From assembly GCA_021463465.1 (NCBI GenBank), contig JAJTYH010000003.1, positions 3,043 to 67,042 of the forward strand: a stretch of DNA of 64,000 nt, given 5' to 3'. Origin of the DNA: a bacterium. GTDB lineage: Bacteria; Patescibacteriota; Dojkabacteria; SC72. The notes beneath the pieces were generated by a model, which made no database searches, was not told where the DNA came from, and saw only the letters and a list, made by a program, of their open reading frames with translations. Positions 2,109 to 62,900 of the stretch are shown one piece after another. The translations under genes and the position numbers were made by a program. The stretch's first letter is position 1, and every line of letters begins with the position of its first letter.

Positions 2109-2312
2109 AAAGACATTAATCAATTTAAACTGAAATTGGTTTTAATACAAAAGTTGATCCCCTAAGGGAGGAGGAGTTTTAATGTCTTAGTTGTGTAGAC
2201 AGAAGATTTTTGCATTTACGGGATTATAGCTCAAAGAAAGGAGAAAATAAATAAAAGCGATATCCCTAATTCTTTGATTTCGTCGAGCAGTGAAGATAAA
2301 ACGATTTATCAT

Positions 2313-14001: not shown

Positions 14002-14504
14002 ATAAGTCCTAAAAATTTTAGAACTCGTGCCTGGCCTCTTCTTACGAAGAAGTCAGGACTAAATTCATAAAGAGCAAAAGAGTGTTTGCACACTCAAAAC
14101 TGAATAGAAATATACCTACCTAAAAATATCAAAGCTTTTGATTTATTAGTACTTCTAGGCTGAACACATTACTGTGCTTACACCAGAAGCCTATCAACGT
14201 GGTCATCTTCCACGAATCTTCCGCTAGGTCAAGCCTAGCAAGCAAATTTCATCTTAGGACGAGCTTCGCACTTATATGCTTTCAGTGCTTATCTCTTAGC
14301 GACTTAGCTACCCTGCGATGCTCTTGGTAGAACAGCAGGTGTACTAGAGGTCACCTCGCCCCGATCCTTTCGTACTAGGGGCCACCTCCCTCAAATTTGC
14401 AACGCCCGCATCGGATAGAGACCGACCTGGCTCACGCCGGTCTGAACCCAGCTCACGTACCGCTTTAATGGACGAACAGTCCAACCCTTGGGTGCTTGTC
14501 CACA

Positions 14505-14536
<32 letters not shown>

Positions 14537-15107
14537 GAACGGTGCCGTCAATATGAACTATCGGGCACCACCAGCCTGTTATCCCCGGGGTAACTTATCT
14601 CCGTTAAACAATAGCGATTCCACATTCTGCTAAAGGGTCACTTAGACCTGCTTTCGCAACTGCTCGGGGTGTCCCCCTCACAGTAAAGCATCCTTATGCC
14701 TATGCACTCTTCATCCGATTTCCATCCGGATTGAGGATACCTTAGTGCTCTTGCGATACTCTTTCGCAAGAAACCGCCCCAGTCAAACTGCCTGCCGTGC
14801 ACTGTTCCTTGGCTAGATCATAGCCACAGGTAAGAAATAAAACGTTAAAAGGGTGGTATTACACTTGGCGCCTCCGCTAGACCTGACGATCCAGCTTCAA
14901 AGGCTCCCACCTATACTCTACATCCAAAGTTTTATCCCAATGCAAAGCTGCAGTAAAGCTCCACGGGGTCTTTTTGTCCTTATGCGGGTAGGCCGCATCT
15001 TCACAGCCATTTCAATTTCGCCGGGCACGTTGTCGAGACAGTGAAAGAATCGTTACGCCTTTCATGCAAGCCACTAATTAAGTGGCGAGGTATTACGCTA
15101 CCTTAGG

Positions 15108-15898
15108 CATTCCTGTTACTTATATCTAGAAAAACTAGATGACCTAATTACTTAGGCGGATACATGTTCATGTATCTCACTACATTGCTGTAGTGGTCGG
15201 ACTATATCTTCACATATTACTATGTGTCTAACATTTAGCCTCTGAGGATTCTATCAATTACTATTTTTCTGTCCCACTTTTTACCTTTACCTAACCGATT
15301 TATCTTGTAAGCATAATCAACTAGCTTTAAAAAACCAGTACGATTGAGATGCTTTTTGTAGTACATCAGAGTAACTGCTTCTGAAAAAATTTCAAAAGCT
15401 TCTGACTTTACAATTAACGGATATTTCTTGAAGAAAGGTATGACTTTAGTAAAACATGGAGTAATTCCAGATATTTGATAGGTAAACACATTAGAAGGAT
15501 TACTCTTTCTATGTATAGAACCAGTATCAAACATACTTTGGATTAATTTAAGAATATCTAAACCTTTCTCATGTTGATAAACATAAAAAGCCGGTTCAAT
15601 TCTTAAACCATATTTCACATTATTTCTATTCTTAATATTAAGACAGAAACTACCTTCTCCATCAATAAATCCTGAGATAAACCAATTAATGTAATGCGTA
15701 TTTGCGGGAACTGTATTTGAAAGTCTTTCCTGCTGATTGTCCAAAAGCATAAAATTTTTACTCTTTAAAAAGTATTTATACCGTTTAGGATGTCCCAGCA
15801 TATAGTTAGATTTTATAACGGCCCAATATCTTGTAGCAACACACTTAATTTCTTTGAAATGAATTTCTAAGAAAATTAAGAGTAGATATTTATCTACC
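15108..15898 (-). mobile_element. Group I-type intron inserted in 23S rRNA between ...AACGGU and CCUAAGGUAGCG... (E. coli site ~1917), carrying a homing endonuclease ORF
   Basis: Exon sequence ...GGCUGUAACUAUAACGGU ends at 15899 and resumes CCUAAGGUAGCGUAAUACCUC at 15107. The inserted 791 nt end in G (omega G) and follow an exon U. Confidence 0.7.
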
Positions 15899-15921
15899 AC
15901 CGTTATAGTTACAGCCGCCAT
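15235..15921 (-). CDS. LAGLIDADG homing endonuclease (intron-encoded); functional start probably internal (M41 or M58)
   Basis: The motif NWFISGFIDGEGSFCL is a LAGLIDADG motif. The annotated ATG at 15921 lies in the 23S exon, so the real start is likely downstream. Confidence 0.75.
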   Translation of the reverse strand: MAAVTITVVDKYLLLIFLEIHFKEIKCVATRYWAVIKSNYMLGHPKRYKYFLKSKNFMLLDNQQERLSNTVPANTHYINWFISGFIDGEGSFCLNIKNRNNVKYGLRIEPAFYVYQHEKGLDILKLIQSMFDTGSIHRKSNPSNVFTYQISGITPCFTKVIPFFKKYPLIVKSEAFEIFSEAVTLMYYKKHLNRTGFLKLVDYAYKINRLGKGKKWDRKIVIDRILRG

Positions 15922-18111
15922 TGACCAGGGCTTAAGTCGTCCGCTTCACAGCAGCTAGGACACCGAAGTGTACCTAGGAGCCGATCACAAACTTCCTTAA
16001 CCTTCTGGCATTGGGCAGGCGTCAGCACTTATACATCTTCTTACGAATTTGCAAGCGCCTGTAGTTTTGTTAACTAGTCGTTCTTTCCAATTTCATGCTG
16101 CCATAATCAACACTAGATAAATCTTGTGTTGTATGGCCCTCCTTCTCGCGAACTTACGGAGTTAATTTGCCGAGTTCCTTAACAACGCATCACCCGTACG
16201 CCTTGGTGCATTCACACCAGTCCACCAGTGTCGGTTTGCAGTACGATTGCAAGTAAATTTAGTATCCCCGAAGGGATACAGTTAGAAGTTTTTCCAGGAG
16301 GATTAAATACGACAAATCGGCTTCCCGAAGGTTACCTTTACGTCACAGCTCACATACGTTTACCCGAAGGTAAACACGTCTCCCCGGATTTACCTGAGAA
16401 GACTAGTTCACTGCTTGTGCCCCAATCCTTAAGGGGCCTGCCTTTTCAATCCCCGAACTCCATCACAATACTAGCAGTACAGGAATATTAACCTGTTGCC
16501 CATCGCATACGCCTTTCGGCCTGTGCTTAGGATCGACTAACCCATGGATGACTGACATAGCCATGGAAACCTTAGACATTCGGCGAGCAGAGTTTTCATC
16601 TGCTTTGCGCTACTCATCCCTACATTCTCACTTCTATGCGCTCCAGAAACTACTTACGTGTTCCCTTCACAGCGTTGTCTAACCTGCTAAGGCTAGCATG
16701 CATAGAACGCTCCCCTACCGCCCATATCCGTCGAAACGGAAATGTACTTGTAACTTCGGAATCTACCTTCAGCCCCGTTAAATCTTAGGTGCAAAGTCTC
16801 TTGACTAGTAAGCTTTTACGCACTTTTTAAAGGGTGGCTGCCTCTAAGCCAACCTCCTAGCTGTCTGAGAATCTTTACCGCCTTCTCCACTCAGGTAGAA
16901 TTTAGGGTCCTTATTTGACAATCTGGGCTGTTTCCCTCTTGAGCATAGGAACTTAGCTCCCTAGCTCTAACTGCTGCAATATACATACCGGTATTTGGAG
17001 TTTAACAAGACAAAGTACGATTACTCGCCTTCGATCTTATTAGTGCTCTACCCCCAGTACTTAAATTGCAACGCTAGCCCTAAAGCTATTTCGGGGAGAA
17101 CCAGCTATAACCAGGTTCGTTTGGCATATTACCGCTAACCACGTCTCATCTCATAGATTCGCAAGTCTAATGAGTTCGGTCCTCGATCCTAATTTCTTAG
17201 GACTTCAACCTGGACGAGGCTAGATCACCTGGATTCGGGTCCAGTGCATACGACTCAAATCGCCCTATTCGGACTCGCTTTCGCTTCGGCTCCACCGTTT
17301 CCGGCTTAACCTTGCCGTACACAACTGACTCGCAGGGTCATTCTTCAATAGGCACGCCGTCACGGGATATACCCGCTCCGACTGTTTGTAAGTATATGGT
17401 TTCAGTATCTATTTCACTCCCCTAACAGGGGTTCTTTTCGCCTTTCCCTCTCGGAACTTTGTTCACTATCGGTCGTAGAAAGTGTTTAGCCTTGCCAAGT
17501 GGTCTTGGCAGCTTCCCACAGAATTTCACTTACTCCGTGGTACTTAGGAAAATTAAAAGAAGATGTACTGATTTAATGTACGCAACTGTCATGCTCTACG
17601 GTCTACCTTTCCAGGTATGTTCCAATATCAGTATATTTTGTAACTTCTCAAGAACCTTGCTGTGTTCTTATATAATTCCCTACAACTCCAATGTCGCACG
17701 AACAGCAATTTACGGACTCTCCGCATCAATCATCGCAACGCGAATCATGAATTAGATACTCCTTACACGACATTAGTTTAGGCTTCTCCCTTTTCGCTCG
17801 CCACTACTAAGGGAATAATCCTGTTGGTATTTTTTCCTCCGGTTACTGAGAGGTTTCACTTCACCGGGTGCCTTTCCTAGCAGCTATGAATTCACTGCTG
17901 GATGATCAGACATGACTCTGATCGGGTTACCCCATTCGGAAATCTCCGGGTTCTAATGTTTGTTTGGCAACTCCCCGAAGCATATCGCAGCCTACCACGT
18001 CCTTCTTCAGCTTTCTACGCCAAGGCATTCACCATATACCTGTAGCATCGCTTTATATATTTTTATTAAAATGGTTGTATTATTTCTATTCAGTTTTTAA
18101 AGTGCAAAATC

Positions 18112-20254: not shown

Positions 20255-22048
20255 CTAAGCAAACATGTGCTCTAACTCTTCCACAGTAGTAACCTGATTT
20301 ACTGCTTTCTCCCTATCAAATTCAATCATTCGGGGGAACCTCAAGGACAAACCGCGGGCAGGCGTATCTGCAACCCCCTTAGTTGTTATTGCCTTCGTTA
20401 TATCATCCGCTTCAATAGTACAGACCACCTCAGGGATTACCCACACATCTGGCTCCAAGATTTTACTAACTATGACATTTCTCGGGATTTTCTTAACAAC
20501 CAAAGGCTTCAATCTAACCAAAATCTTCTCCCATAGCTCATCTGTAACCCCAGTACCCAAACGTGTCACTGACTCAAAAAGCTCTTTTTCATGGTTGTAA
20601 ACTCCACAAAGTAGCGCTCCTATACCAAAAGTCGCACGCTTACCCGACCCTAGGTAGTACCCAAGAATAACTACGTCAATCGAATCACTCAAACCAGACA
20701 TGAACGATTTTTTGAGCTTAATCCATTCAAAGTTTCTACTCCCTGGGGTATATCCTCCAGAGGGTAACTTAGCTATTAAACCCTCTAACCCGGCTTCTAC
20801 CCACCTGCTAAAATTCTCTTTCAAGGCACCCTCGTCAGTTATCCGCACACTTTCTGCCTCTAAAATATCAGTATTCGCACTCTTCAAAAGCAAACTCAAC
20901 TTACCTATACGACTTTCCGTACCCTCATTAATCTGATTTTGACCATCTAAGTACATTAAATCAAAAGCAAAAGACTTTACAGGGATATCCGCAGATATTT
21001 TACTAACCGCATACTTACGTTTTCTTAACATTGTATCTTGGTAAGACTTAAAGTGAGCCCTCTGCGAGTCCCACCCTATTACCTCACTATCTAAAATAAA
21101 GGATTCTGATTTAAGCCGTTTTGCAGCCTCTACAATCTCAGGAAACATCTGAGTGACGTCTTCCAGATTACGTGTAAACAACTTTACTTGAGTCACGTCG
21201 CCACCAAATAGCCCTGCCTGGCTTTCCTGCTTTAAGTATTTAAACCAGATTCGATCTGAATATATAGCGCCGAAACCTTTGACTGACTTATGAATTTGAA
21301 GCCTCAAACCGTCAAACTTAGGTTGGACAACATAACTTTCTCCCATCCGAACTGTAATCTCTTCAAAACTTTTAGCTCGTTCTACTAATCTCGAAAGAAT
21401 TGGTATGCCAGGTTTAACTTCAATCTTTCTCAAATCATCAATTGACCTATTTTGGCATACAACCTGCGCTATATATCCAATATCCGCACTCACTCCATAC
21501 GCCTTATCTAACTCTTCTCTGACACTCTTATCCCCTTTGAACAAAAAGGAGAAGACATCTAGCAATGTCTTAACACTCGCCCCTAATCTCAAACTTCCGC
21601 AAACTATCCGAGCGAAAAACTTACCTTCAAGTTTTGAGAAATCAGAAAGAGCTTTAACCAAAATTAGCTGCTTCCTTTCAGCCGAACCTAAACCTCTGGC
21701 ATTAACAATACTCCACAGCAACTCATAGACTTCCATTACCTCCATATTCGAACCATTACTCTTTAATACATAATAAACGACTGTGCCTATATCCCCGCGG
21801 GCTTTACGCAAATCCAAAACACTCTCTGAAGTTAAACTTTGAAGAGCTTTCAAAAAGGTTTTTTCGGATGTTTGGAATTCACTATCTACAAACAATGGAG
21901 CAACACGACCATCAAGCATATACGAGACAACAGTGACTTCCTGCAAGTTAAGGCTATTGTAAAGTTCAACGAGCTTAGCAGTCATTTCATTACGCGACGA
22001 TACAGCTTCAATCGATTCCAACACCGAAACTAACTGAGAAAATTTCAT
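20255..22048 (-). CDS. ATP-dependent DNA ligase (Lig1/LigB-type)
   Basis: 597 aa carrying the adenylation KxDG motif (KFDGLRLQIH). There is an N-terminal DNA-binding domain, and nucleotidyltransferase and OB domains in canonical order. Confidence 0.85.
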   Translation of the reverse strand: MKFSQLVSVLESIEAVSSRNEMTAKLVELYNSLNLQEVTVVSYMLDGRVAPLFVDSEFQTSEKTFLKALQSLTSESVLDLRKARGDIGTVVYYVLKSNGSNMEVMEVYELLWSIVNARGLGSAERKQLILVKALSDFSKLEGKFFARIVCGSLRLGASVKTLLDVFSFLFKGDKSVREELDKAYGVSADIGYIAQVVCQNRSIDDLRKIEVKPGIPILSRLVERAKSFEEITVRMGESYVVQPKFDGLRLQIHKSVKGFGAIYSDRIWFKYLKQESQAGLFGGDVTQVKLFTRNLEDVTQMFPEIVEAAKRLKSESFILDSEVIGWDSQRAHFKSYQDTMLRKRKYAVSKISADIPVKSFAFDLMYLDGQNQINEGTESRIGKLSLLLKSANTDILEAESVRITDEGALKENFSRWVEAGLEGLIAKLPSGGYTPGSRNFEWIKLKKSFMSGLSDSIDVVILGYYLGSGKRATFGIGALLCGVYNHEKELFESVTRLGTGVTDELWEKILVRLKPLVVKKIPRNVIVSKILEPDVWVIPEVVCTIEADDITKAITTKGVADTPARGLSLRFPRMIEFDREKAVNQVTTVEELEHMFA

Positions 22049-22050
22049 AC

Positions 22051-22449
22051 CTATTTAGCCAGAGTATAGTTGACAGACTTTGTACTCCCATTACGCTTAA
22101 CAAACCCCATTTTTTCAAGCTTATTCAAATCTCGTCTCAAAGTTCGATCTGTCTGAGCAAACAGCTTTACCATATCCGAAACCTTACCCTCTCCTCTCTC
22201 AGATATATAGTCCATAACTCTCATTTGACGATCGTTTAGACCGTTCGAGGCAAAAGTTGACTCCGGTTTAAGGTTCTCTACTTTAAGCGCTTCTTGGACT
22301 TTAACTTTAGGAGGAAAGACTCTTCTTACAATTACAGGTCTACGAGCACCGCGCTTCTTCATGAAAAGATAGTAGATTACCACCACTGGTACTAACAAAA
22401 GGAAAAGAAGATACCCGTAGTTTTGTTTTTTCATGAAAATAAAGCTCAA
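22051..22449 (-). CDS. Membrane-anchored winged-helix (HTH) DNA-binding protein
   Basis: 132 aa with an N-terminal TM helix (LLFLLLVPVVVIYYLF) and a C-terminal wHTH resembling the DeoR/ArsR type (MRVMDYISERG...DLNKLEKMGFVKR). Confidence 0.5.
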   Translation of the reverse strand: MSFIFMKKQNYGYLLFLLLVPVVVIYYLFMKKRGARRPVIVRRVFPPKVKVQEALKVENLKPESTFASNGLNDRQMRVMDYISERGEGKVSDMVKLFAQTDRTLRRDLNKLEKMGFVKRNGSTKSVNYTLAK

Positions 22450-22491
22450 TTTACATTGAATTCTACAATAATTTCCATATGGATGTAATAC

Positions 22492-23952
22492 CTACTTCAG
22501 TTCGCTCATATTGCTTCCAGAGGAGACATTCACTTCCAGCGGAACATTGAGTTTAACGACATTTTTCATAATATCTTTAACCTTCTCACTGAATTCCTCT
22601 ACAAGTTCTTCTTTTACCTCAAAAATCAATTCATCATGAATCTGTAGGAGCATATAAGCTCTATCCCTGTATTTCTTCTGAATCATTTCATCTATCTCGA
22701 CCATTGCAAGCCTCATAATATCAGCTTCACCTCCTTGGATAGGCATATTAACAGCTTCGCGAATTGCCGCATTAAGCATATTTCGATTGCGAGAAGATAG
22801 TCCAGCAATATGCCTTGTCCTCCCAAACATTGACTGAGCGTATCCATACTTAAGTGCTATCTCCTTAGCCCGATTAATATAGTTACCTACCCCCGAGTAT
22901 GTTTTGAAATACTCTTCAATATACTGCTGAGCCAATTCACCAGAAATCCCAGCCAATCGAGATAATCCATACTTGGTTTGACCAAAAAGAATTGCAAAGT
23001 TAATAGTTTTACCCAAATTCCGCTCATCTTTTGTTATTTCACCCTCAGGTTTACCCATAACCCTTGCTGCCGTAGACATATGGATATCCTTCCCTTTAAT
23101 GAAATCTTCGACAAGCGCACTATCCAGAGAAATATCAGCCATAACCCTGAATTCAATCTGCGAATAGTCGGCCCCTACAATTTTAAAACCTTTTCTTGGC
23201 ACAAACACTGAGCGTATCTTCGACGCAAACTCACCTCGTGCTGGGATATTCTGCATATTAGGATTAATAGAAGAGAAACGTCCAGACGAAGAACCAGTCA
23301 TTTTAAAATCGGTATGAACGACAAAACCTTCACCTTCTGATTCAATCGCCATCAAAGGTTTGACATAAGTACTGTGAATCTTAGTAACTTCCCGATACCT
23401 AAGAACTAATTCAATAACCGGATGCAAAGATTTAAGCTCATTAAGGATTTCCTCTCTGGTACTGCGCTTCCGACCGCTCACAGGCAATGAAAGTTCCGTA
23501 AAGAGCACATCAGCCAACTGCTTTGGGGAATTCACATTAAATTCATGACCTATCTCTTCATAAATCCTTTCAGTGACAATCACCGTTTCTTTAGAAAGCA
23601 GTTTATCTATCTCAATGAGCCTATCCCTTCTTAATGTAACACCTCTCTTTTCCATCCTGGAGAGCACCCGTGCAAGCGGTATATCAAGAAAATTAGAAAC
23701 GACTTCGTAAGGAGTTAACCCTCTGCTTTTAAATCTATCCACTAAGAACTCAAACCATTTCTCGACATACTCACTATTTTCCGTATTCTTCATCTGAGCT
23801 TTCAACGCGTCAACAATTTCAATAAATGCTTTCCCTATTTTATTGGCATCACCCTTGTCCAGCTTGTCAGGCAAGGCTTTAGCTACAAACTCAAAAGCGA
23901 TTGAAGGCAAGTCGTATGATTTCTTACCAGAAGAAAGTAAATGGGAAAGCAA
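22492..23952 (-). CDS. polA: DNA polymerase I, C-terminal fragment (family A polymerase domain); frame stays open upstream to 24021
   Basis: Motif A is DYSQIEFRVMA, motif B is KTINFAILFGQTKYGLS and motif C is QIHDELIFE. The ORF track places the start at a TTG. Confidence 0.8.
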   Translation of the reverse strand: MLSHLLSSGKKSYDLPSIAFEFVAKALPDKLDKGDANKIGKAFIEIVDALKAQMKNTENSEYVEKWFEFLVDRFKSRGLTPYEVVSNFLDIPLARVLSRMEKRGVTLRRDRLIEIDKLLSKETVIVTERIYEEIGHEFNVNSPKQLADVLFTELSLPVSGRKRSTREEILNELKSLHPVIELVLRYREVTKIHSTYVKPLMAIESEGEGFVVHTDFKMTGSSSGRFSSINPNMQNIPARGEFASKIRSVFVPRKGFKIVGADYSQIEFRVMADISLDSALVEDFIKGKDIHMSTAARVMGKPEGEITKDERNLGKTINFAILFGQTKYGLSRLAGISGELAQQYIEEYFKTYSGVGNYINRAKEIALKYGYAQSMFGRTRHIAGLSSRNRNMLNAAIREAVNMPIQGGEADIMRLAMVEIDEMIQKKYRDRAYMLLQIHDELIFEVKEELVEEFSEKVKDIMKNVVKLNVPLEVNVSSGSNMSELK

Positions 23953-23987
23953 CTTTATATCGAAAAAGCTTTTTCCTTTAGCAAAGT

Positions 23988-25148
23988 CTACCTGTTCCCC
24001 TTTCCCACAGCTTCTTCGTAATTATAAAACCAGGTTTCACAGCTTTCATCGTCCGTGAAACTCGGAATAATCTCTGTGGATAAATTCCCCTCCTTATCCG
24101 CGATACATTTTAACCAAAAAGGCTCTACAGCTACCTCTTCCCGAGGAAAGTAGCCATATATAACAGTTCTCGGAGTGCCGACAGGTACAAAACCCTGGGA
24201 CTCACTATCGACCTCAACGCCAAACATCCCTAATTGCTCGCCCCTACTTTGCCTATTTGCCGATTTAGGAATTTTGGTGATTAAAGACCTAAATTCGAGT
24301 TTTTTAAATATTGTCGCCACTTCGTTTTCATCAAAATCACTTAACAAACAACTTTCGAGCTGTAAGTTCAAATCCACACTTTTATTTATTGTAGCTAGAT
24401 CCTTACTAAACTCAGCCTGCTCTACACCTTCCTTTAATAAAGTTGCTACTCTAGGCGTTAAAGAGGTTAAGTTTTTGTATATACCCCCTAGGGTACCGTA
24501 CTTATCCAAAAGATCTTTGGCCGTTTTATCCCCCACGCCTTTAATGCCCGGAATATTATCCGAAGCATCCCCTACAATAGCCTTATACTCCACAACCTGC
24601 TCTGGGTAATAACCATATTTATTAAAAGCAGCATTTCTATCGAAAATACTGAGATTACTAAAACTTCCCTGAGGGATACAAACCTTAACTTTCTTACCGA
24701 TAAGCTGCAAAAAATCCCTATCGCCTGTTATTAAATACGTATCAGTATCGTAATTCGTCCATTTTCCCCTCTCAACCCACTCTGAAATGGTACCTAATAT
24801 ATCATCTGCCTCATATCCATCTTTCTTAAGAATAGGAATATTCATCGCCTTAACTACCTCTTCCACTATTGGAAATTGGTCAATCAGCGATTGATCGGTT
24901 GGTTTACGGTGTGCTTTGTACTCTACATACTTTGCATGTCTAAAAGTTGGCTTACTTGTATCAAAAGCACAGACCACGTACTTAGGATCAAACTGTTTCA
25001 ACACCTGCAAAAGCATCACTGTGAACCCGTACACAGCATTTACCTGAACTCCATCAGACGTAGTTAGTGAAGCGGGATATGCGTGGAATGCTCTGTGAAT
25101 AATTGCGTTTGCATCAATCCCAATGAACAAGTCTTTACCCTTTGCCAT
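23988..25148 (-). CDS. polA: DNA polymerase I, N-terminal fragment (5'-3' exonuclease / FEN domain plus start of vestigial 3'-5' exo region)
   Basis: 386 aa with a 5' nuclease domain, conserved acidic residues and an H3TH. The ORF ends with TAG 35 nt before the downstream polymerase-domain ORF, which is in the -1 frame. Confidence 0.8.
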   Translation of the reverse strand: MAKGKDLFIGIDANAIIHRAFHAYPASLTTSDGVQVNAVYGFTVMLLQVLKQFDPKYVVCAFDTSKPTFRHAKYVEYKAHRKPTDQSLIDQFPIVEEVVKAMNIPILKKDGYEADDILGTISEWVERGKWTNYDTDTYLITGDRDFLQLIGKKVKVCIPQGSFSNLSIFDRNAAFNKYGYYPEQVVEYKAIVGDASDNIPGIKGVGDKTAKDLLDKYGTLGGIYKNLTSLTPRVATLLKEGVEQAEFSKDLATINKSVDLNLQLESCLLSDFDENEVATIFKKLEFRSLITKIPKSANRQSRGEQLGMFGVEVDSESQGFVPVGTPRTVIYGYFPREEVAVEPFWLKCIADKEGNLSTEIIPSFTDDESCETWFYNYEEAVGKGNR

Positions 25149-25172
25149 AGCGTATTATACTCTACCAACCAG

Positions 25173-27047
25173 TTACTTCTCAATAACCCTGTTAAATTCC
25201 TCCCTGCTAAGCTCTTCTTTCTCCATCAGTTTGGCCACTAATTTGTCTACATCAACCTTATGGTCGCTGAGAATCTTACGGGCATTTTTCTGAGCCAAAT
25301 CAATGATAGACTTAATCTCATTGTCGATAAGTTCCGCCGTTTTATCGCTATAATCCCTATCGCCCCCATACGAATATCCCAAATGAGTAGTCTCTTCCAT
25401 ATTTCCATATTTAACAAAGCCCAACTTTTCACTCATCCCCCAACGACGAACCATCAATTTAGCGATATCTGTAGCATGTTCAATATCCGAAGCGGCACCA
25501 TTACTCATCTCACCAAACCATATCTCTTCAGCAATTTTTCCACCCACAGAAGACTGAATTGCGGCGAAAAGCTGAGTCTTCGTCTCGTTCGATCTATCTT
25601 CTTCTGGTACATAAACAGTGACACCACCGGACATTCCTCTGGAGATCATAGAAACCAACTCCACAGGAGAAGATCCTTCAGTGAATTTGGCAACAACTGC
25701 ATGCCCCGCCTCATGATAAGCAACTCTTTTAAGGTCTTCTTCGGTTCGTTTGTTTTTAAGCTGCCTTCCAAGTTTAACTTTAAGATATGACTCCAAAAGA
25801 TGCGACTGAGTAATCTCTTTTTTGTTCTCTTTAGCTGCCATAATTGCAGCTTCGTTCAAGAGATTTTCTAAATCTGCACCCGAATACCCCACTGTTTTCT
25901 TCGCAACAATCTCCAAGTTTGTTTTTTCAGCAAACTTTTTATTCACCGCATGGACCTTTAATATATCCAATCTCTCATGGAAGTCTGGCATTCGAACAGT
26001 TATAGTACGGTCAAAACGACCTGGACGAAGAATCGCTGGATCCAATACATCTGGACGATTTGTAGCAGCAAGGACTATTACATTCTCGCGATCTTCAAGT
26101 CCGTCCATTTCAACCAAAATTTGGTTTAGAGTTTGCTCTCCCGCTCCAGAATGGAGCACAGTACCTCTCTTTTTTGCCACAGCATCTATTTCATCAATAA
26201 AAACGATACAAGGAGCGGCTCTTCTAGCTTTTTGGAACAAGTCTCGAACCCTAGAAGCACCTGCGCCAACCAACATCTCTTCAAATTCTGAACCAGAAGT
26301 ATGGAAAAATGGTACTTTAGCCTCACCTGCTACGGCTTTAGCTAAAAGTGTTTTGCCTGTACCAGGTGCACCAGCAAGCAGAACACCCTTAGGGATTCGT
26401 GCGCCTGCATCAGTGTACTTTTTAGGACTTTTCAAAAAATCAACTATCTCAATCAACTCTTCTTTAACGTCTTCAATTCCAGCAACACTATCAAAGGTTA
26501 CTCCAACCTTTTTACCAAAAAGCAGTCTAGCTTTTGACTGACCAAAATCCATAAGTTTACCCCCTGATTGCTGCATCCCGCGAATCATGTTGTACATCAT
26601 CACAAGTCCAACGCTAAGTAGAATCATCCAAATGATATCTGCAATAGAAATCTGAAAAGATGGCTGGTAAAAGTCATTTTTAAGTGTCTTAATGTCCACC
26701 CCAGCATCTGCTAAAACTGAATAGAAATCAGTACCTGGTTGCACCAAAGCAAACGAACGTTGCGTAGTCTTTATCTCAGTTCCGCCAACATTCTGGATAG
26801 CTTCTTTTGAGAGGATAACCATCTCATCTTTGATGGCAACTTTACTGTAATCACCTCGTGAAATATCACTAACGATTGCACTCAATGAAACCTCTTTCCC
26901 TCTTGCTTGTGCACCAAGAAAAAATGACCAGCATGTGAAAACAACAGCAAATATAATAAGCGAAATTAAGAGATTTGTCAGATTAAAGACCTTACTCTCA
27001 GGTTTAAACTTTACGATATTTGGGCTATTTTTTTCTTGTTGAGGCAT
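25173..27047 (-). CDS. ftsH: ATP-dependent zinc metalloprotease FtsH
   Basis: 624 aa with an N-terminal TM, an AAA module (GAPGTGKTLLAKA) and an HEAGHAV zinc-binding motif. Confidence 0.9.
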   Translation of the reverse strand: MPQQEKNSPNIVKFKPESKVFNLTNLLISLIIFAVVFTCWSFFLGAQARGKEVSLSAIVSDISRGDYSKVAIKDEMVILSKEAIQNVGGTEIKTTQRSFALVQPGTDFYSVLADAGVDIKTLKNDFYQPSFQISIADIIWMILLSVGLVMMYNMIRGMQQSGGKLMDFGQSKARLLFGKKVGVTFDSVAGIEDVKEELIEIVDFLKSPKKYTDAGARIPKGVLLAGAPGTGKTLLAKAVAGEAKVPFFHTSGSEFEEMLVGAGASRVRDLFQKARRAAPCIVFIDEIDAVAKKRGTVLHSGAGEQTLNQILVEMDGLEDRENVIVLAATNRPDVLDPAILRPGRFDRTITVRMPDFHERLDILKVHAVNKKFAEKTNLEIVAKKTVGYSGADLENLLNEAAIMAAKENKKEITQSHLLESYLKVKLGRQLKNKRTEEDLKRVAYHEAGHAVVAKFTEGSSPVELVSMISRGMSGGVTVYVPEEDRSNETKTQLFAAIQSSVGGKIAEEIWFGEMSNGAASDIEHATDIAKLMVRRWGMSEKLGFVKYGNMEETTHLGYSYGGDRDYSDKTAELIDNEIKSIIDLAQKNARKILSDHKVDVDKLVAKLMEKEELSREEFNRVIEK

Positions 27048-35143: not shown

Positions 35144-35217
35144 TGGGGGAGGACGGAATCGAACCGTCGACATCGGCTTTATAAGAACCGCGCTCTAACC
35201 TTCTGAGCTACACCCCC
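35144..35217 (-). tRNA. tRNA-Ile (anticodon TAT), no encoded CCA
   Basis: Cloverleaf with D-arm gctc/gagc, anticodon stem cggtt/agccg, loop ctTATaa and T-arm gacgg/ccgtc. The acceptor stem is gggggtg/ctccccc with one U-U mismatch. Confidence 0.65.
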
Positions 35218-56905: not shown

Positions 56906-59900
56906 TTATTTCTTTTTTACGATAATCCCCCGATCCACTACTATTTCTTTAGCTTTACGCTTCTTGGTGATTATACTGCTACCACCTTCGTATCTAACTG
57001 CCTTGTATCTTTCATCCATGACTCCAAGTTGATAAGTATCATTTGGCATTACAAATTGATACTGACCCTCTTTGTCTGTAACCCTTTTACCGACATATCT
57101 ATCAAACTTCATCTCTTTCAGAGTTACTGTGACACCCTCTACTGGACTGCCACTCTTTTCAACTACCATTCCAAACGACTGTTTTTTAATAGTTATGTTC
57201 TTAATTAACAACATTGAAGCAGGTAGATACAACAATACAGCGGTGAGATTAAGTGGGCTTGGGAATTTAAAGTAGGTATAGGCACCTAGGGCTAAACCAC
57301 CAAAAAATAGCGTTATATGGAAGATCTTTACGAGGATTGACGCAGAGCTCAAAAACTGTGCAAACACTTTTGAAATAGGAGAGAGAGCCTTTGGATCCAT
57401 CGGTACTACAATATTAAACATACTTTTACGCATAAAATTCACCAACTCTCCGTGGTAAACAGGCTCAAGAGGATAATCCACATGACCAGGCACAATCTTT
57501 GATGGATAAGTGTAGCCTGGTTTAACGACTAAGACCTTATACTTTCCTGGAGGGAGGCTGGCCCCAAATGTTCCAAATGCACTAGTTACATCTGTCCAAA
57601 CTAATCGCTCGCTTGTATTATAAATCCTCACTACAGCACGATTAATTGGCTTTTTGCTCACTGCATCATAAACCAAACCGTAAGGTCTACTTTTTTTAAT
57701 AAAACCGAAGAAGGAAAGTATGCTTACAAGTAATTGAATAAGGAAGTATGGAATATTTGTAAAGCCACCAGCAAATACTGCTATTCCAACAGAAACAGTT
57801 GTAGCAGTAGCGGCTGAAGCAACTACACTTAACTGAGGTTCTGACAGTTTTCCAACAGGTGTAGCATCAATAATTTTCGAAACTTTCTTCGCAGCAACAA
57901 TGGTAGCCTTAGGCGCCTTAACCAATACCGCATCTGCAACCTTTTTAACAGTTGGATTATTGATGCCTTTTACTAGCGACTCTGTAGGAATAACAATATC
58001 TTCCTCAGTCAGTTCTTCCTCAGTTGGAGTAACCTGATTTCCCTCTGTAGGCTCACTAACAGGTGACTCAACTTCAACAATCTCACCCATACCACCAGTT
58101 CCACTCAAGCCAGAAGCTACCCAGTAATCGATATTGCCAATTTTTTCTTTATGAACAACAACATCTTCACCTTCAATCTTTTTTGTCTGTGGGAACACAC
58201 CTTCAAAAATCACTCCTCCCTCACAATTACTATTAACGTCCGCAAGTGTAAGACTCCCTGGACACAGCCTGAATCTAGTTGTTTCACCAGCGGGTGTATA
58301 AAGCGTGAAGTTACCCGATAAACCCTGTTGCTGTGTAATCTTAAATACTGCCTTATTCTCCAACTTACTTGAATCCGCCCTTACGCTGCTCCAGTCTTTA
58401 TCCGAATCAAATAAGACTGGTAGATCAGCAATCAATAAATCTCCTTTAGTGACTTTCAATTCTTTTTCACCCCTTTGTGCGCCTTCAAACTGAGCTACAT
58501 TCACCTCAGGCAAATCTTTCAATACAACTGTAACACCAGCAGGAGCGCTGAATACCACCGCGTTGGTTTTTACAATAATCTTTGTACCATAAATAGTTTC
58601 TACGTTATTTCCGTTTCGTGCCTTTACCTTGAATTCAAAATCAGATGCAGAAGGCAAACCTTTTATTAAAAAACCATTATTGCCGCCAAACTCTTCATAA
58701 GTACCCCATGAAGCAGTGCTTTTAAGCGTTCCGTCTTCTTTCGAAACAAACTTCCCACTTGCAACCTCAAAAATAGCATATAAAACAAGGCTGTCGTTGC
58801 CTGGGTTTACAAGGCGAATTCGACCCCCTGTTGTTGATTGAGTGTTAAATGTAGGCTCTCCTGGTACCAAAGCATTAGTATGCGCCGTTGCCGCATCAGA
58901 ATATTCAGTTTCAACATTCTGTTGGTTTCTTGATTTCACCAAGAAAGTGTAAAATTTGCCAGGTACAAGCTGGGTCACAGTTACACCACTACTCCCACCC
59001 CACTGTGCATATGTTCCCCAAACAGGTGAATCTACCTGCGCACCAGAAAGGTTAACAAATTTATCCAATCCATCAATTTTAATACTAAAGCTACTTGTAC
59101 TAGACGAATACTGATTATCTAACTTCAATTTTATTGAGTTTGTTGAAAGGTTAGACAAACCTAATGGAACAGGGCGCGGCGCAAGGGTTGTAACTTGAAC
59201 ACCTTCAGTTTCAAACGACACAACTTCATCGCCATTTCGAACATAAACTTTGAAAGTGTAAGTTGCATTTGGAGTCAAACCCGTTACAACAACACCATTA
59301 CTCGACCCGAATTCAGAGTATGTACCCCAAATAGCGCTATCACTTAAGTTACCACCAGACTTAGGAACGTATTTAAGCGAATTTTCTCTAATACTAAACT
59401 GGGTTGCTGGAGGATTACCACCATTACTCACCTTTATCCTTACTGAGGTATCAGATACAGCTTCAAGAATTGGAAGGTCAAGAGGTGCTGCATGGGTGTA
59501 CTTTTGACCAGTTAGCGATACATCTGTTTCTACATTATCACTATTTTTTGCCTTAACTGCGAATGTATATTGAGCATTAGCAAACAAACCTACCACATTT
59601 ACCCCTGTTGTTTGACCAAAGTCACTATATGAGCTCCAGGTAGGGGTAGTTCCTAAACTTCCATTGCCTGGATTCACATACAAGCCAGAAACTGTTTCAA
59701 GTAAGGCATAACTTGTTGTTGTATTATTACTTCCAGTATTAATCTTAACGTTAATTGAGGTATTGGAGACCGCACTCACATTAGGGGCATCTGGAATGTT
59801 AGCAAATGTCGTTATAGTAGCTGTGCTAGTGAAATCGCCATTACCATTAGAATCGTAAGCAGCTACTTTACGCGTGTATGAGGTGTTAGCAGTCAGACCG

Positions 59901-62900
59901 AATTCATCACAGTATGTGATATTGCTACTTGCGCACTGTGCAACCTGTACTCCGCTCTCGTCAAAAACCCTAAAGCCTACCTCGTTGGTTAAATCCTCAG
60001 TAAATTTCCATCTGATACTTGTACTGCTTAGCACCTCTGGGGTACCCATAGTTGGAGCGCCAAGTGCCTCGTATTCGCCTGAAGCATTGCTATATGAAGT
60101 TTCTTCACCGTCGTTATTTCTAGCTTTAACCCTAAATGCATAACCAACACCAGGTTCTAAGCCAGAAGCTATAAACCCACTATCTCCACCGTAATCAGCA
60201 AACTGATCCCAAGCTTCATTCTGTACAAAGTTGCCAGATGAATTAACATAATCCCCACTATTAACTTCTTGTACAGCATATGTAACAGAAGCAGGGTTAC
60301 CGTTACTATCAAGTGTTACCCTAGCCGTTGCAGAGCTAATCCTCTGAACATCTGGAACGCCTGGGGTATTTGCAAATGTATATTTCGTAGCCGAACTTCC
60401 AAATACAGTGACCACCTGATCTCCATTTCTTGCCATAACTTGGAAGGTATAGCCATTATTAGGGGATAATCCTGATACACCTAAACCGTTAGACCCTCCC
60501 CACTGAGCATATGTAGCCCAATCTGCGCTGCCCTGTGCCACTCCCGTTTGATGGTTTATATAATTACTACCACCTACCTGAACTGAAAACTCTGTATTAG
60601 AAGGGTTATTGTTAACATCCAAAACAAGCTTTAAAACAGTAGTAGATAGTGCGCTTAAAGTCGGGGCATTTGGTGTTTTAGATCGTGTATAAATAGAAGA
60701 TCCTGTTGATAATGCCCCCTCTATATTATTTATGTTCCTAGCTTTTACCTTATATGTGTACTGAGTATTACTACTTAACCCTATCGAGTCTACCCCGCTA
60801 GTACCGCCCCACTGTGCGTAGGTCCCCCACTGTACCTCCGAAACCAACTGGCCATTAGCTGGATTAAGATATTGATCAGTTACATCCTCAAATACCGCAA
60901 ACTCAGTATTAGAAGGATTTGTTTGAGGGTTAATTTTCACATTAATAACTGTTGATGAAAGCGAGGAAACGGAAGGTGCTACACTATCAGCAGCTAAAGT
61001 AACAAATTGACCTTGTGAGGATTGCGAAGTTTCAACATTAGATTCATTTCTTGCTATAACTGTGGCGAAATACGACGTATTAGGAGTTAAACTTGTAATA
61101 GTAATACCCTCCCACTCTGCTTCGGTTTTCCATGTCGCAGGTGAAGTTACAAGACTTCCGTTCCCATCAACGTAATAAGTATCATCAATTAGTATTTTGA
61201 ACTTAGTATAAGTAGGATTGCCACCTGGATTAATCCCAATTGTTGCCGTAGTTTGGCCAGCAGTAATTGAAGGGGCATCAGGTGTAACCGACAGCGTATA
61301 TAAAGTAGAACTTGAGCTTTTAGAACTCTCAGTTCCTCCATTGTATGCACTTAGTTTTCGAGTGTACGAAGTATTTACATTCAAACTGTTTTCAACACAC
61401 TCGTAAGTATCTCCACTAACTAAATTAGCAGTACAATTAGCAATAAAAGAATCCCCTCCATCATAAAGTTTAAAACCCGTTTCATTAAGACCATTGTTAT
61501 TAAACCTCCAGGAGATGGTATCTCCATCTACAGCTACAGGGGTTAAAATATTAGGGGTTAAAAGATTAGTATAAGTTGAGATACTGCTGCTGTACGCTGT
61601 TTCAGTATTTTCAGAATTCCTAGCTTTTACCTTAAAAGTATACTGTAATCCCTCATCAAGATTATTTACCTGAAAGTTAGTGCCCCAGGAACTTGCTGTA
61701 TACCAGAACGGCGCAACTTGGAGTTGATTCGTTGTACCGTTAACGTATTTGCTACTAGACTCCTCAAAAAATGCATATTCTGTTGAGGTTGGATTACTAT
61801 TTAAATCTGAATTTAAGGCAATCTTTACATAGTTGCTACTAACTTCGGCAAAGGAAGGTACCAATGGAGTATTCGCGGCTGAATATTTATTTGAGGTTGA
61901 AGAATACGCTGTCTCAATACCGTCACCATTTCTTGTTTTTACTCTGAACGTATATTGAGTATTAGGAATTAAACCTGAAATTATTTCAGCGCCATCACTG
62001 TCCCATGATCCACTCTCATTGCAACCGGCAGTAGTACAATCAAACATTACAGCAGACTGACCTTGTCCAAGATTACTTGTACCACTTGTGAGAACTTCAA
62101 TAGATGTAGGTCCTACAGATCCATAAGAGATTGAAGGTACTGATGCTAAAGTATAAATGGTCACATTAGACGAGTATGCTGTCTCTACACCATCACCATT
62201 CCTACCTTTTACTCTAAATGTATATTGCGTATTGTCGGACAAAGATGTGGCAGTCGCATTCATTGACGTTTGCCATGCATTTAACCCTGTGTCACAACTG
62301 GTTCCTGTACAATCAAAATATATACCTGAGCTTCCTTCAGTTTCGTTTGATACCCCACTGGCTGTAAGCGGAATTTCAGATGTCGTTATTGTACCTAATG
62401 CAATCGAAGGGGTCTGGATAAGTGTATACCTACTTATACTTGATGAGTACGTTTGGCTATCGCCATTTTCATTGTATGCTTTTAACTGCCTCTGATACGA
62501 GACATTAGGAGAAAGTCCCGTTTCATCACAGTATGCAATATCAGCGCCGACACAAGTAGCTTTCAGATTGCCTAACATATCAAACACTTTTACTCCATCC
62601 TCATTATCTGCATTATCAGTAAACGTCCACCTGATTGAAGTTGTAGAAAGGGCCGAAGGTGCTGTTGCAGTAGGGGTATCAGGGACATTTAGTTCTTCTG
62701 ATCCAACTGTAAAAGATACAGAGTCCCCTGAATTATCTTTTCGTTGTGCGTATATAACCTGCAAGTAAGGGGGTAAGCTTGATTGAGAGTCAGTTATTGC
62801 GCTACAGCTATGTGTATGCGATGCAGAGGCTGTTGTTGTGACTGTTCCGTAGCTTGTAACCTTATTACTACCTGAATCAACAGATGTTGATAGATTTAAA

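Follow-up and report, generated by a model that had tools for sequence, protein, structure and literature searches.

In the 64-kb stretch of Candidatus Dojkabacteria DNA analysed here (the window), the minus-strand polA gene carries a one-base frame change within a G/A-rich stretch, and is consequently written in two reading frames. We conclude, with a probability of roughly 0.82, that this break is an unprogrammed indel (an error or a recent mutation) in a gene for a single polypeptide. The gene is split, the domains on either side of the split are intact, and both conservation of the frame change and elements that could stimulate frameshifting are missing. Apart from the break, polA is an ordinary single-polypeptide gene, encoding a 5'-nuclease, a vestigial exonuclease-like domain, and a family A polymerase.

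The first frame (ORF1, ending ...YNYEEAVGKGNR-TAG) covers the 5'-nuclease domain and a disordered linker, and continues ~60 residues into the exonuclease-like domain. Its Pfam matches are 5_3_exonuc_N (PF02739; 2.7e-51) and 5_3_exonuc (PF01367; 1.4e-28), and it matches Taq Pol I residues 15-284. The second frame is bounded by a TAA at 24024-24022, beyond which it stays open, and encodes the remainder of the exonuclease-like domain together with the family A polymerase domain. It matches DNA_pol_A (PF00476) at 4.2e-123, covering positions 3-380 of the 381 in the profile, and aligns to Taq 433-826 with motifs A, B and C (DYSQIEFRV, KTINFAILFG and QIHDEL) intact; in motif B, Phe replaces Tyr, as in the family consensus. 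No second lesion occurs in its 509 codons. The coordinates of these and other features are collected in Table 1.

Table 1. Features of the polA region, in window coordinates
Feature	Position	Strand	Basis or comment
polA upstream frame (ORF1), 386 aa	23988..25148	-	Stop TAG 23990-23988; Pfam, Taq match, structure model
polA downstream frame, -1 relative to ORF1	22492..24021	-	Pfam, Taq match, homologue alignment
Frameshift box	23991..24021	-	Sole stretch permitting the frame change; alignment, structure model
G GGA AAG GGG, two overlapping in-phase X_XXY_YYZ heptamers	23997..24006	-	Sequence; chance estimates; literature
14-nt palindrome gaaaaagctttttc	23962..23975		Unremarkable; not a functional part
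polA promoter-like site TTGAGA-18-TATAAT	25154..25183	-	11/12 matches

As written, polA has no continuous reading frame but breaks at 24021..23988. Its two frames share 34 nt, stop codon included, of which 31 nt—the frameshift box—are usable for a shift. Re-checking the sequence bore out what a preliminary description of this region had reported of the extent and TAG end of ORF1, the -1 phase and opening of the polymerase frame, and the 34-nt overlap (if the stop codon is counted). A -1 shift (or one added base) generates a Pol I that is colinear with its relatives over the full length and reads ...EEAVGKGEQVDFAKGKSFFDIKLLSHLL... across the junction, just as previously given; its length is 885 aa rather than the ~892 aa first estimated. 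The nuclease domains and polymerase blocks are those of Taq/Bst-type Pol I, in which the 3'-5' exonuclease-like domain is inactive. In contrast to bacterial Pol I, however, polA as written in the window can be read through only by shifting to the -1 frame at residue 383.

The break does not coincide with a domain boundary. In the structure model it falls in loop 383-396 (pLDDT about 64), inside the exonuclease-like domain, while the true disordered inter-domain linker spans residues 299-325. The frameshift box encodes a poorly conserved surface loop flanked by the conserved blocks CETWFYNxE and FDIKLLSH. ORF1 takes in four strands and one helix of this domain before it stops, ~60 residues beyond the domain boundary, and the unshifted 386-aa product is thus predicted to end within a folded domain and not to be self-contained.

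This position bears on the proposal, made in the preliminary description, of a genuine two-subunit Pol I. The nuclease piece (386 aa) and the polymerase piece (486 aa) would then exist as separate polypeptides, the latter initiated at TTG 23952 or by reinitiation past the TAG, and the two might reassociate via the split exonuclease-like domain. Stand-alone 5'-nucleases do occur in many other CPR lineages, on long contigs; these FEN-like 5'-3' exonucleases of CPR/Patescibacteria carry both Pfam nuclease domains found in ORF1 and share 43-48% identity with its residues ~1-300. However, they end at the domain boundary (~295-320 aa), whereas ORF1 reaches 386 aa, into the next domain. Initiation of the second piece is also problematic. 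TTG 23952 lies 36 nt past the TAG and is the earliest canonical start codon of the downstream frame, but it sits within the conserved block FDIKLLSHLLSSGKK (FDIKLLSH), part of which would therefore be lost. It has no Shine-Dalgarno sequence, and the second frame offers nothing usable as a start signal.

A promoter-like sequence, ATGAAA-17-TATAAT, is found at 24049..24021, just 5' of the frameshift box, and could in principle serve the polymerase half. Against this, its TATAAT is accounted for by the codons for Tyr-Asn in the conserved WFYN motif, and the intact gene of the closest relative, L059, has it as well; furthermore, the region contains seven promoter-like matches against a shuffled expectation of 3.5 +/- 1.7, which is not clearly above chance. 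In the promoter-like site upstream of the whole gene, the -10 hexamer stops 5 nt short of the ATG, suggesting that the polA mRNA is leaderless. Downstream of the internal -10 hexamer there is no AUG at which initiation of the leaderless type, apparently favoured by this genome, could begin; we accordingly rejected an internal promoter with a leaderless start as a source of the polymerase half. No Dojkabacteria relative is split at the point where the window polA breaks. Taken with the location of the break, we regard a naturally divided Pol I as scarcely credible.

Comparison with homologues indicates that the uninterrupted form of the gene is the rule. The best 120 homologues of the fused Pol I are single ORFs, except for one contig-end fragment; for 119 of the 120 (875-921 aa), the alignment covers 99-100% of the fused protein. 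Its length, domain order and gene neighbourhood are those of Dojkabacteria orthologues. The junction lies in a variable-length linker between two conserved blocks. In the three closest relatives (62-64% identity), which share with the window the gene order FtsH-polA-HTH_DeoR-ligase, polA is a single ORF at the DNA level and the linker is 14 codons long; in the window it measures 44 nt, or 14 codons plus 2 nt. None of the three carries G_GGA_AAG, the slippery heptamer at the window junction. Across the homologous 65 codons, two of them have no in-phase heptamer at all, and the third has an A_AAA_AAT (Lys-Asn) that is incidental, the gene being intact. The comparison with close relatives that had been proposed earlier thus yields an uninterrupted polA in each case and freedom from heptamers in two of three, at identities of 64% at most; this is largely the outcome named there as refuting the observation.

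The best protein match to the window Pol I has 64% identity, and the test of conservation is thus one above the species level. The exact products of ORF1 and ORF2 have no match in the gene-position index, and scans of genome and metagenome contigs for a polA of the same species gave a best tblastn segment of 53% identity. A protein search with a 221-aa segment spanning the junction returned no match at E <= 1e-5, which suggests that near-identical junction fragments are absent.

The sequence at the junction accounts for the interest in recoding. G_GGA_AAG (24006..24000) lies within the frameshift box in the correct X_XXY_YYZ phase, as the preliminary description had recognized; it had overlooked a second in-phase heptamer, A_AAG_GGG (24003..23997), which overlaps the first and also lies inside the box. 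The 0-frame TAG follows G_GGA_AAG after three codons (9 nt). A stop shortly after the slippery heptamer is common to many real recoding sites. The X_XXA_AAG class, to which G_GGA_AAG belongs, is among the most shift-prone in E. coli (PMC5009743, PMC4066793).

How often such a site would arise by chance was estimated in two ways. The frequency of in-phase heptamers over 15,881 ordinary codons in the window is 0.0072 per codon; given nine positions in the overlap, any heptamer is expected there with a probability of ~6% and an X_XXA_AAG with ~0.9%. In simulated random one-base deletions, the frameshift box holds an in-phase heptamer of some kind in 12-15% of cases and an X_XXA_AAG in 1-2%. When one base is lost just upstream, any XXX-YYY codon pair of the true frame automatically mimics an in-phase heptamer when read from the upstream frame. 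The mere presence of a heptamer in the frameshift box is therefore weak evidence. That a top-class heptamer sits in phase in a 31-nt box, at only ~1-2% under random deletion, speaks against an unprogrammed indel, as do the 0-frame stop three codons later and the otherwise clean window.

These same features make up the case for programmed -1 ribosomal frameshifting of the dnaX/IS3 type, in which ribosomes would slip on G_GGA_AAG or A_AAG_GGG to maintain a set ratio of the 386-aa and 885-aa products: a heptamer of the top efficiency class with a second overlapping it, a nearby stop, and a shifted product that fits the homologues with no gap problem. Yet X_XXA_AAG heptamers also occur in phase 15 times in the ordinary genes of the window, and the short product would stop ~60 residues into a folded domain rather than at the 299-325 linker. 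Moreover, the full-length relatives examined are single ORFs. GeneTack requires a cluster of at least five genes with a conserved frameshift site (PMC3711429); because the frame change is not conserved, the window polA belongs to no such cluster. It instead resembles the singleton frameshift genes of that survey (PMC3711429) in being single, unclustered, and located in short homopolymer runs.

The surroundings of the heptamer were searched for stimulators. Folding of 50-, 60- and 107-nt windows found no stable hairpin or pseudoknot ~5-9 nt downstream of the heptamer. The 50-nt folds starting 0-15 nt past the heptamer have energies of -5.7 to -8.9 kcal/mol, which places them between the 26th and 65th percentiles among 3,417 genic windows, and the 107-nt fold has a z-score of -0.95. 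A 60-nt fold reaches z = -2.2, but only when the bases immediately adjoining the heptamer pair; these would sit inside the ribosome, and the fold was rejected as a stimulator on that ground. The preliminary description had also pointed to a palindrome ~25 nt downstream. This exists (23975..23962, 24 nt past the heptamer), but its folding energy is 0.0 kcal/mol, and the window contains five 14-nt palindromes against 4.9 +/- 2.2 in shuffles; it is thus no stimulator. Upstream of the heptamer, the sequence tacgaagaagctgt has no GGAGG-like core, and hence no Shine-Dalgarno-like stimulator is found there. A Shine-Dalgarno core precedes only 3 of 45 genes, the genome being nearly free of such sequences, and this, together with the upstream sequence itself, led us to reject the element.

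The E. coli dnaX site consists of A_AAA_AAG with a Shine-Dalgarno-like element upstream and a hairpin downstream. Like dnaX, the window polA is a replication gene with an in-phase X_XXA_AAG and a stop codon near; unlike dnaX, it has neither the Shine-Dalgarno-like element nor a stable hairpin at the right spacing, and its orthologues do not conserve the site. For E. coli dnaX, it is the short protein that results from the shift (PMC3711429), whereas in the window polA a shift would be needed for the full-length enzyme and the short product would end inside a domain. Bare heptamers in E. coli, tested free of stimulators, raised frameshifting to only 2-10 times a background of ~0.055%. Programmed frameshifting is, on this evidence, very unlikely. 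Transcriptional slippage was rejected because the longest runs are only G4 and A3; known cases need A or T runs of about 7-8 or longer (PMC3711429).

Other Dojkabacteria contigs provide analogues of the break as frameshifted pseudogenes or assembly indels. One of them, L063, is shifted by -1 within this same polA linker, with an in-phase C_CCA_AAG, and was considered as a second, independent case of frameshifting. Alignment to the intact genes of L066 and L067 (89-91% protein identity) shows a plain deletion, one base having been lost from a GGG run that lies upstream of the C_CCA_AAG, and L063 was rejected as such a case; it bears an additional TAT-to-TAA nonsense change 60 nt after the deletion. 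Two further contigs, L064 and L065 (= CP129478.1), also have a broken polA and are multiply broken, with FtsH and/or the ligase fragmented too. The window differs from noisy assemblies of this kind in that the 64 kb around polA contain no other broken gene among ~57, as judged from suspicious adjacent ORF pairs and from large genes. With polA alone broken in an otherwise clean window, the assembly is not a generally error-prone one.

The nature of the indel, and whether it is an error or a mutation, are inferred. Of the three explanations originally offered for the split—programmed frameshifting, a two-subunit enzyme, and a 1-nt indel—the last is favoured, and the evidence above counts against the first two. 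We propose a net frame change of -1 nt inside GTGGGAAAGGGGAAC, in the variable surface loop. The short G3, A3 and G4 homopolymer runs of the overlapping heptamers are the most likely place for a one-base deletion or a two-base insertion: one base would have been lost from one of these runs, or two extra G gained. One extra G or A in a run would give GTGGGGAAAGGGG, GGGAAAAGGGG or GGGAAAGGGGG, and the intended product would be the 885-aa Pol I. The in-phase heptamer would then be a by-product, the true-frame GGG AAA (Gly-Lys) resembling G_GGA_AAG when read from the upstream frame. In the alignment to L059, the linker is too divergent to pinpoint the indel. The window reads V-G-(K-G)-N-x-V-D where L059 has V-G-N-L-V-D; this one residue of the alignment hints that the missing base could instead follow AAC (23994).

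As to origin, a consensus or sequencing error stands at slightly better than even odds, while a real mutation, recent or strain-level, is less likely but quite possible. If the genome truly lacks the base, unprogrammed -1 slippage on either of the two overlapping heptamers could still supply full-length Pol I in trace amounts. This would be compensatory slippage, a special case of the unprogrammed indel in which most ribosomes stop at the TAG and a low level of Pol I suffices. Compensatory frameshifting at indels is a recognized category (PMC5009743), the heptamer class is intrinsically shift-prone, the 509 downstream codons are still perfect, and the clean window weakens the case for a sequencing error. 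Nevertheless, the yield expected in the absence of stimulators is well below 1%, and an assembly error would give the same sequence. We consider compensatory slippage doubtful.

For annotation, the two ORFs are best treated for now as one polA with a frameshift. A more far-reaching outcome, which we think quite improbable, is lineage-specific recoding: the one-base deletion would be fixed, and Pol I would be made by stimulator-free -1 slippage on G_GGA_AAG/A_AAG_GGG. If so, the main product of the gene would be a 386-aa 5'-nuclease protein, translated from a leaderless-looking mRNA. Such a polA would be the first on a chromosome known to need ribosomal frameshifting and, after dnaX, the second replication gene among the few non-mobile bacterial genes with -1 recoding—in an organism where Shine-Dalgarno pairing is hardly used.

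Rechecking of both polA reading frames bore out the coordinates and translations of the preliminary description (see table). In Pfam, ORF1, the upstream frame, matches just two 5'-3' exonuclease domains, and the downstream frame encodes a full DNA_pol_A domain (4e-123). The overlap in which a shift can occur (the frameshift box) spans 24021..23991, where the 0-frame reads gtG GGA AAG GGG. It holds, in phase, both the heptamer originally picked out, G_GGA_AAG, and a second one that had been overlooked, A_AAG_GGG; a -1 shift at either gives the same product (...EEAVGKGEQVDFAKGKSFFDIKLLSHLL...) of 885 aa, rather than the ~892 aa first estimated. We consider that the frame change most probably reflects an unprogrammed indel in an ordinary polA gene (probability roughly 0.8).

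Features of the polA locus, in window coordinates
Feature	Position	Strand	Remarks
ORF1 (386 aa)	ATG at 25148 to TAG 23990-23988	minus	C-terminal end ...CETWFYNYEEAVGKGNR
Downstream polA frame	open after TAA 24024-24022 to 22492	minus	one base behind ORF1
Heptamer G_GGA_AAG	24006..24000	minus	X_XXY_YYZ phase
Heptamer A_AAG_GGG	24003..23997	minus	X_XXY_YYZ phase; overlaps G_GGA_AAG
Promoter-like ATGAAA-17-TATAAT (10/12 matches)	24049..24021	minus	inside polA, 5' edge of frameshift box
polA promoter-like site	25154..25183	minus	-10 hexamer ending 5 nt ahead of ATG

The top matches of the fused protein are DNA polymerase I sequences of Candidatus Dojkabacteria (WS6, CPR), the nearest at 64% identity. 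All but one of the 120 best homologues are single proteins (875-921 aa) that cover the fused query over 99-100% of its length; only a fragment of 721 aa, from a 2.2-kb contig, departs from this. The fused protein matches residues 15-284 and 433-826 of Taq Pol I and retains intact DYSQIE, KTINF and QIHDE blocks. In motif B, the Taq tyrosine (VLYG) is replaced by phenylalanine (ILFG; fused residue ~722, near window position 22980 on the minus strand), a substitution shared by a consensus built from 46 Dojkabacteria Pol I sequences. Alignment with 40 of the 120 homologues places the frame change within a linker variable in both length and sequence, between the conserved flanks CETWFYNxE..V (upstream frame) and FDIKLLSHLLSSGKKSY (downstream frame). 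In an AlphaFold2 model of the fused protein (mean pLDDT 87), the domains are separated by a disordered linker at residues 299-325, and an exonuclease-like domain begins at 326 (strands 326-334, 344-351, 356-361 and 371-375; helix 377-382). The junction, K383/G384, falls in loop 383-396, with more helices of that domain following it. The break thus cuts a folded domain ~60 residues past its natural boundary.

Uninterrupted relatives without a heptamer, as envisaged in the preliminary description, were for the most part found. Each of the three closest relatives (loci L059, L060/L061 and L062) carries polA as one ORF. In two of them the homologous 65 codons are free of in-phase heptamers; the intact gene of the third includes an incidental A_AAA_AAT (Lys-Asn). 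The gene order FtsH-polA-HTH_DeoR-ATP-dependent ligase, in which the HTH_DeoR protein is small and the DNA ligase 597 aa long, is common to the window (20255..27047, minus strand), L059-L062 and L066, a further Dojkabacteria locus. From the conserved V/I/L to D-I-K there are 14 codons in the three closest relatives, versus 44 nt in the window. Since 44 nt is 14 codons plus 2 nt, either one base was lost from a 15-codon linker or two were gained (e.g., G2 to G4) in a 14-codon linker. Genome and metagenome contig scans revealed no same-species polA (maximum 53% identity, for the best tblastn segment), the junction segment gave zero matches when used as a query, and no record of the exact ORF1 or downstream products was found.

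In-phase X_XXY_YYZ heptamers occur 114 times in the 15,881 codons of 45 ordinary window genes. Fifteen of them are X_XXA_AAG (8 A_AAA_AAG, 4 T_TTA_AAG, 3 C_CCA_AAG). In-phase counts roughly match those in one of the two remaining phases, so avoidance is not apparent, and the organism clearly tolerates such heptamers. When one-base deletions were simulated in the ordinary genes, 12-15% of the resulting frameshift boxes contained an in-phase heptamer, and 1-2% an X_XXA_AAG. The reason lies in the structure of the site: every XXX-YYY codon pair of the downstream frame reads as an in-phase -1 heptamer, and the two are exactly equivalent; in the window polA, this pair is GGG AAA (Gly-Lys).

Programmed frameshifting, one option raised in the preliminary description, draws on the fact that G_GGA_AAG is rated among the heptamers most prone to shifting in E. 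coli (PMC5009743; PMC4066793). However, heptamers without stimulators yielded just 2-10 times a 0.055% background there (PMC4066793), and folding points to no stimulator here: 50-nt windows that begin 0-15 nt past the heptamer reach -5.7 to -8.9 kcal/mol (26th-65th percentile among 3,417 genic windows of the same sequence), the 107-nt downstream fold has z = -0.95, and the 60-nt fold attains z = -2.2 solely via pairing of the GGGAA immediately adjoining the heptamer. The 14-nt palindrome remarked upon earlier is present, 24 nt downstream, but does not fold on its own; the window holds 5 such palindromes, versus 4.9 +/- 2.2 in shuffles. There is no Shine-Dalgarno-type sequence ahead of the heptamer. 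By published criteria, calling a programmed frameshift needs a gene cluster with a conserved site (PMC3711429), whereas the polA frame change is a singleton. Moreover, ORF1 overshoots the stand-alone 5'-nuclease boundary by about 60-90 residues: in other CPR bacteria, such nucleases measure about 295-320 aa and match ORF1 over residues ~1-300. With a singleton site, no stimulator and a product ending past the domain boundary, we regard programming as improbable.

That Pol I is genuinely split into two genes is hardly credible. The first start codon of the downstream frame, TTG 23952, is part of the conserved FDIKLLSH block and lacks a Shine-Dalgarno sequence. A promoter-like site does lie within polA, but its TATAAT (which includes the TAA closing the -1 frame) supplies the adjacent Tyr and Asn codons of the conserved WFYN motif, recurs in the intact L059 gene, and is followed by no AUG, which leaderless initiation would require. 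Across the window, a Shine-Dalgarno core is found in just 3 of 45 genes (the 16S rRNA 3' end retains CCUCC), and TATAAT lies 5-11 nt ahead of the ATG in many, polA included; such proximity suggests that leaderless mRNAs are widespread.

As to the origin of an unprogrammed indel, a consensus or sequencing error has somewhat better than an even chance. Against a simple sequencing error, the window is otherwise clean: suspicious adjacent ORF pairs are complete, separate genes, and large genes (ClpB-like, UvrD-PDDEXK, RadA, S1, FtsH, ligase and a 2,177-aa surface protein) have full domain sets. Because no broken gene other than polA was seen among about 57, a real deletion of recent date must be taken seriously; a real recent mutation, perhaps with trace compensatory slippage, is given clearly less than even odds.

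Three further features of the window were observed. A 23S rRNA match (14125..18057, minus strand; 3,933 nt versus a 2,925-nt model) encloses a 228-aa ORF (15235..15921, minus) with a LAGLIDADG_1 homing-endonuclease domain (7.6e-20), which suggests that the rRNA gene carries an intron-type insertion. A tRNA-Ile with anticodon UAU, an uncommon bacterial route for reading AUA, is predicted at 35144..35217 (minus). The 2,177-aa ORF (56906..63439, minus) probably encodes a giant surface protein; it has fibronectin type III domains as well as CarboxypepD_reg-like ones.

Other Dojkabacteria polA genes are also broken. In locus L063 (JGI Ga0183122_113529), a polA fragment of 404 aa stops within the linker that is also interrupted in the window polA; a -1 shift is required within 2160..2240, where C_CCA_AAG is in phase (the true frame reads it as CCC AAA, Pro-Lys). 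DNA alignment with its intact relatives L066 and L067 (89-91% protein identity) reveals that L063 has lost one base from a GGG run (cttGGGctc against cttGGccc) upstream of the heptamer, and that a TAT-to-TAA nonsense change follows 60 nt later. These changes rule out L063 as independent support for frameshifting, and indicate a damaged or poorly sequenced copy rather than a recoding site. In L064 (Ga0496408_003178) and L065 (CP129478.1, 378026-385483; a 1.04-Mb genome), polA is split three ways; fragmentation also affects the ligase in both and FtsH in L064, which indicates noisy assemblies. Both resemble long-read assemblies rich in frameshifts, whose broken polA genes should not be taken as biology.
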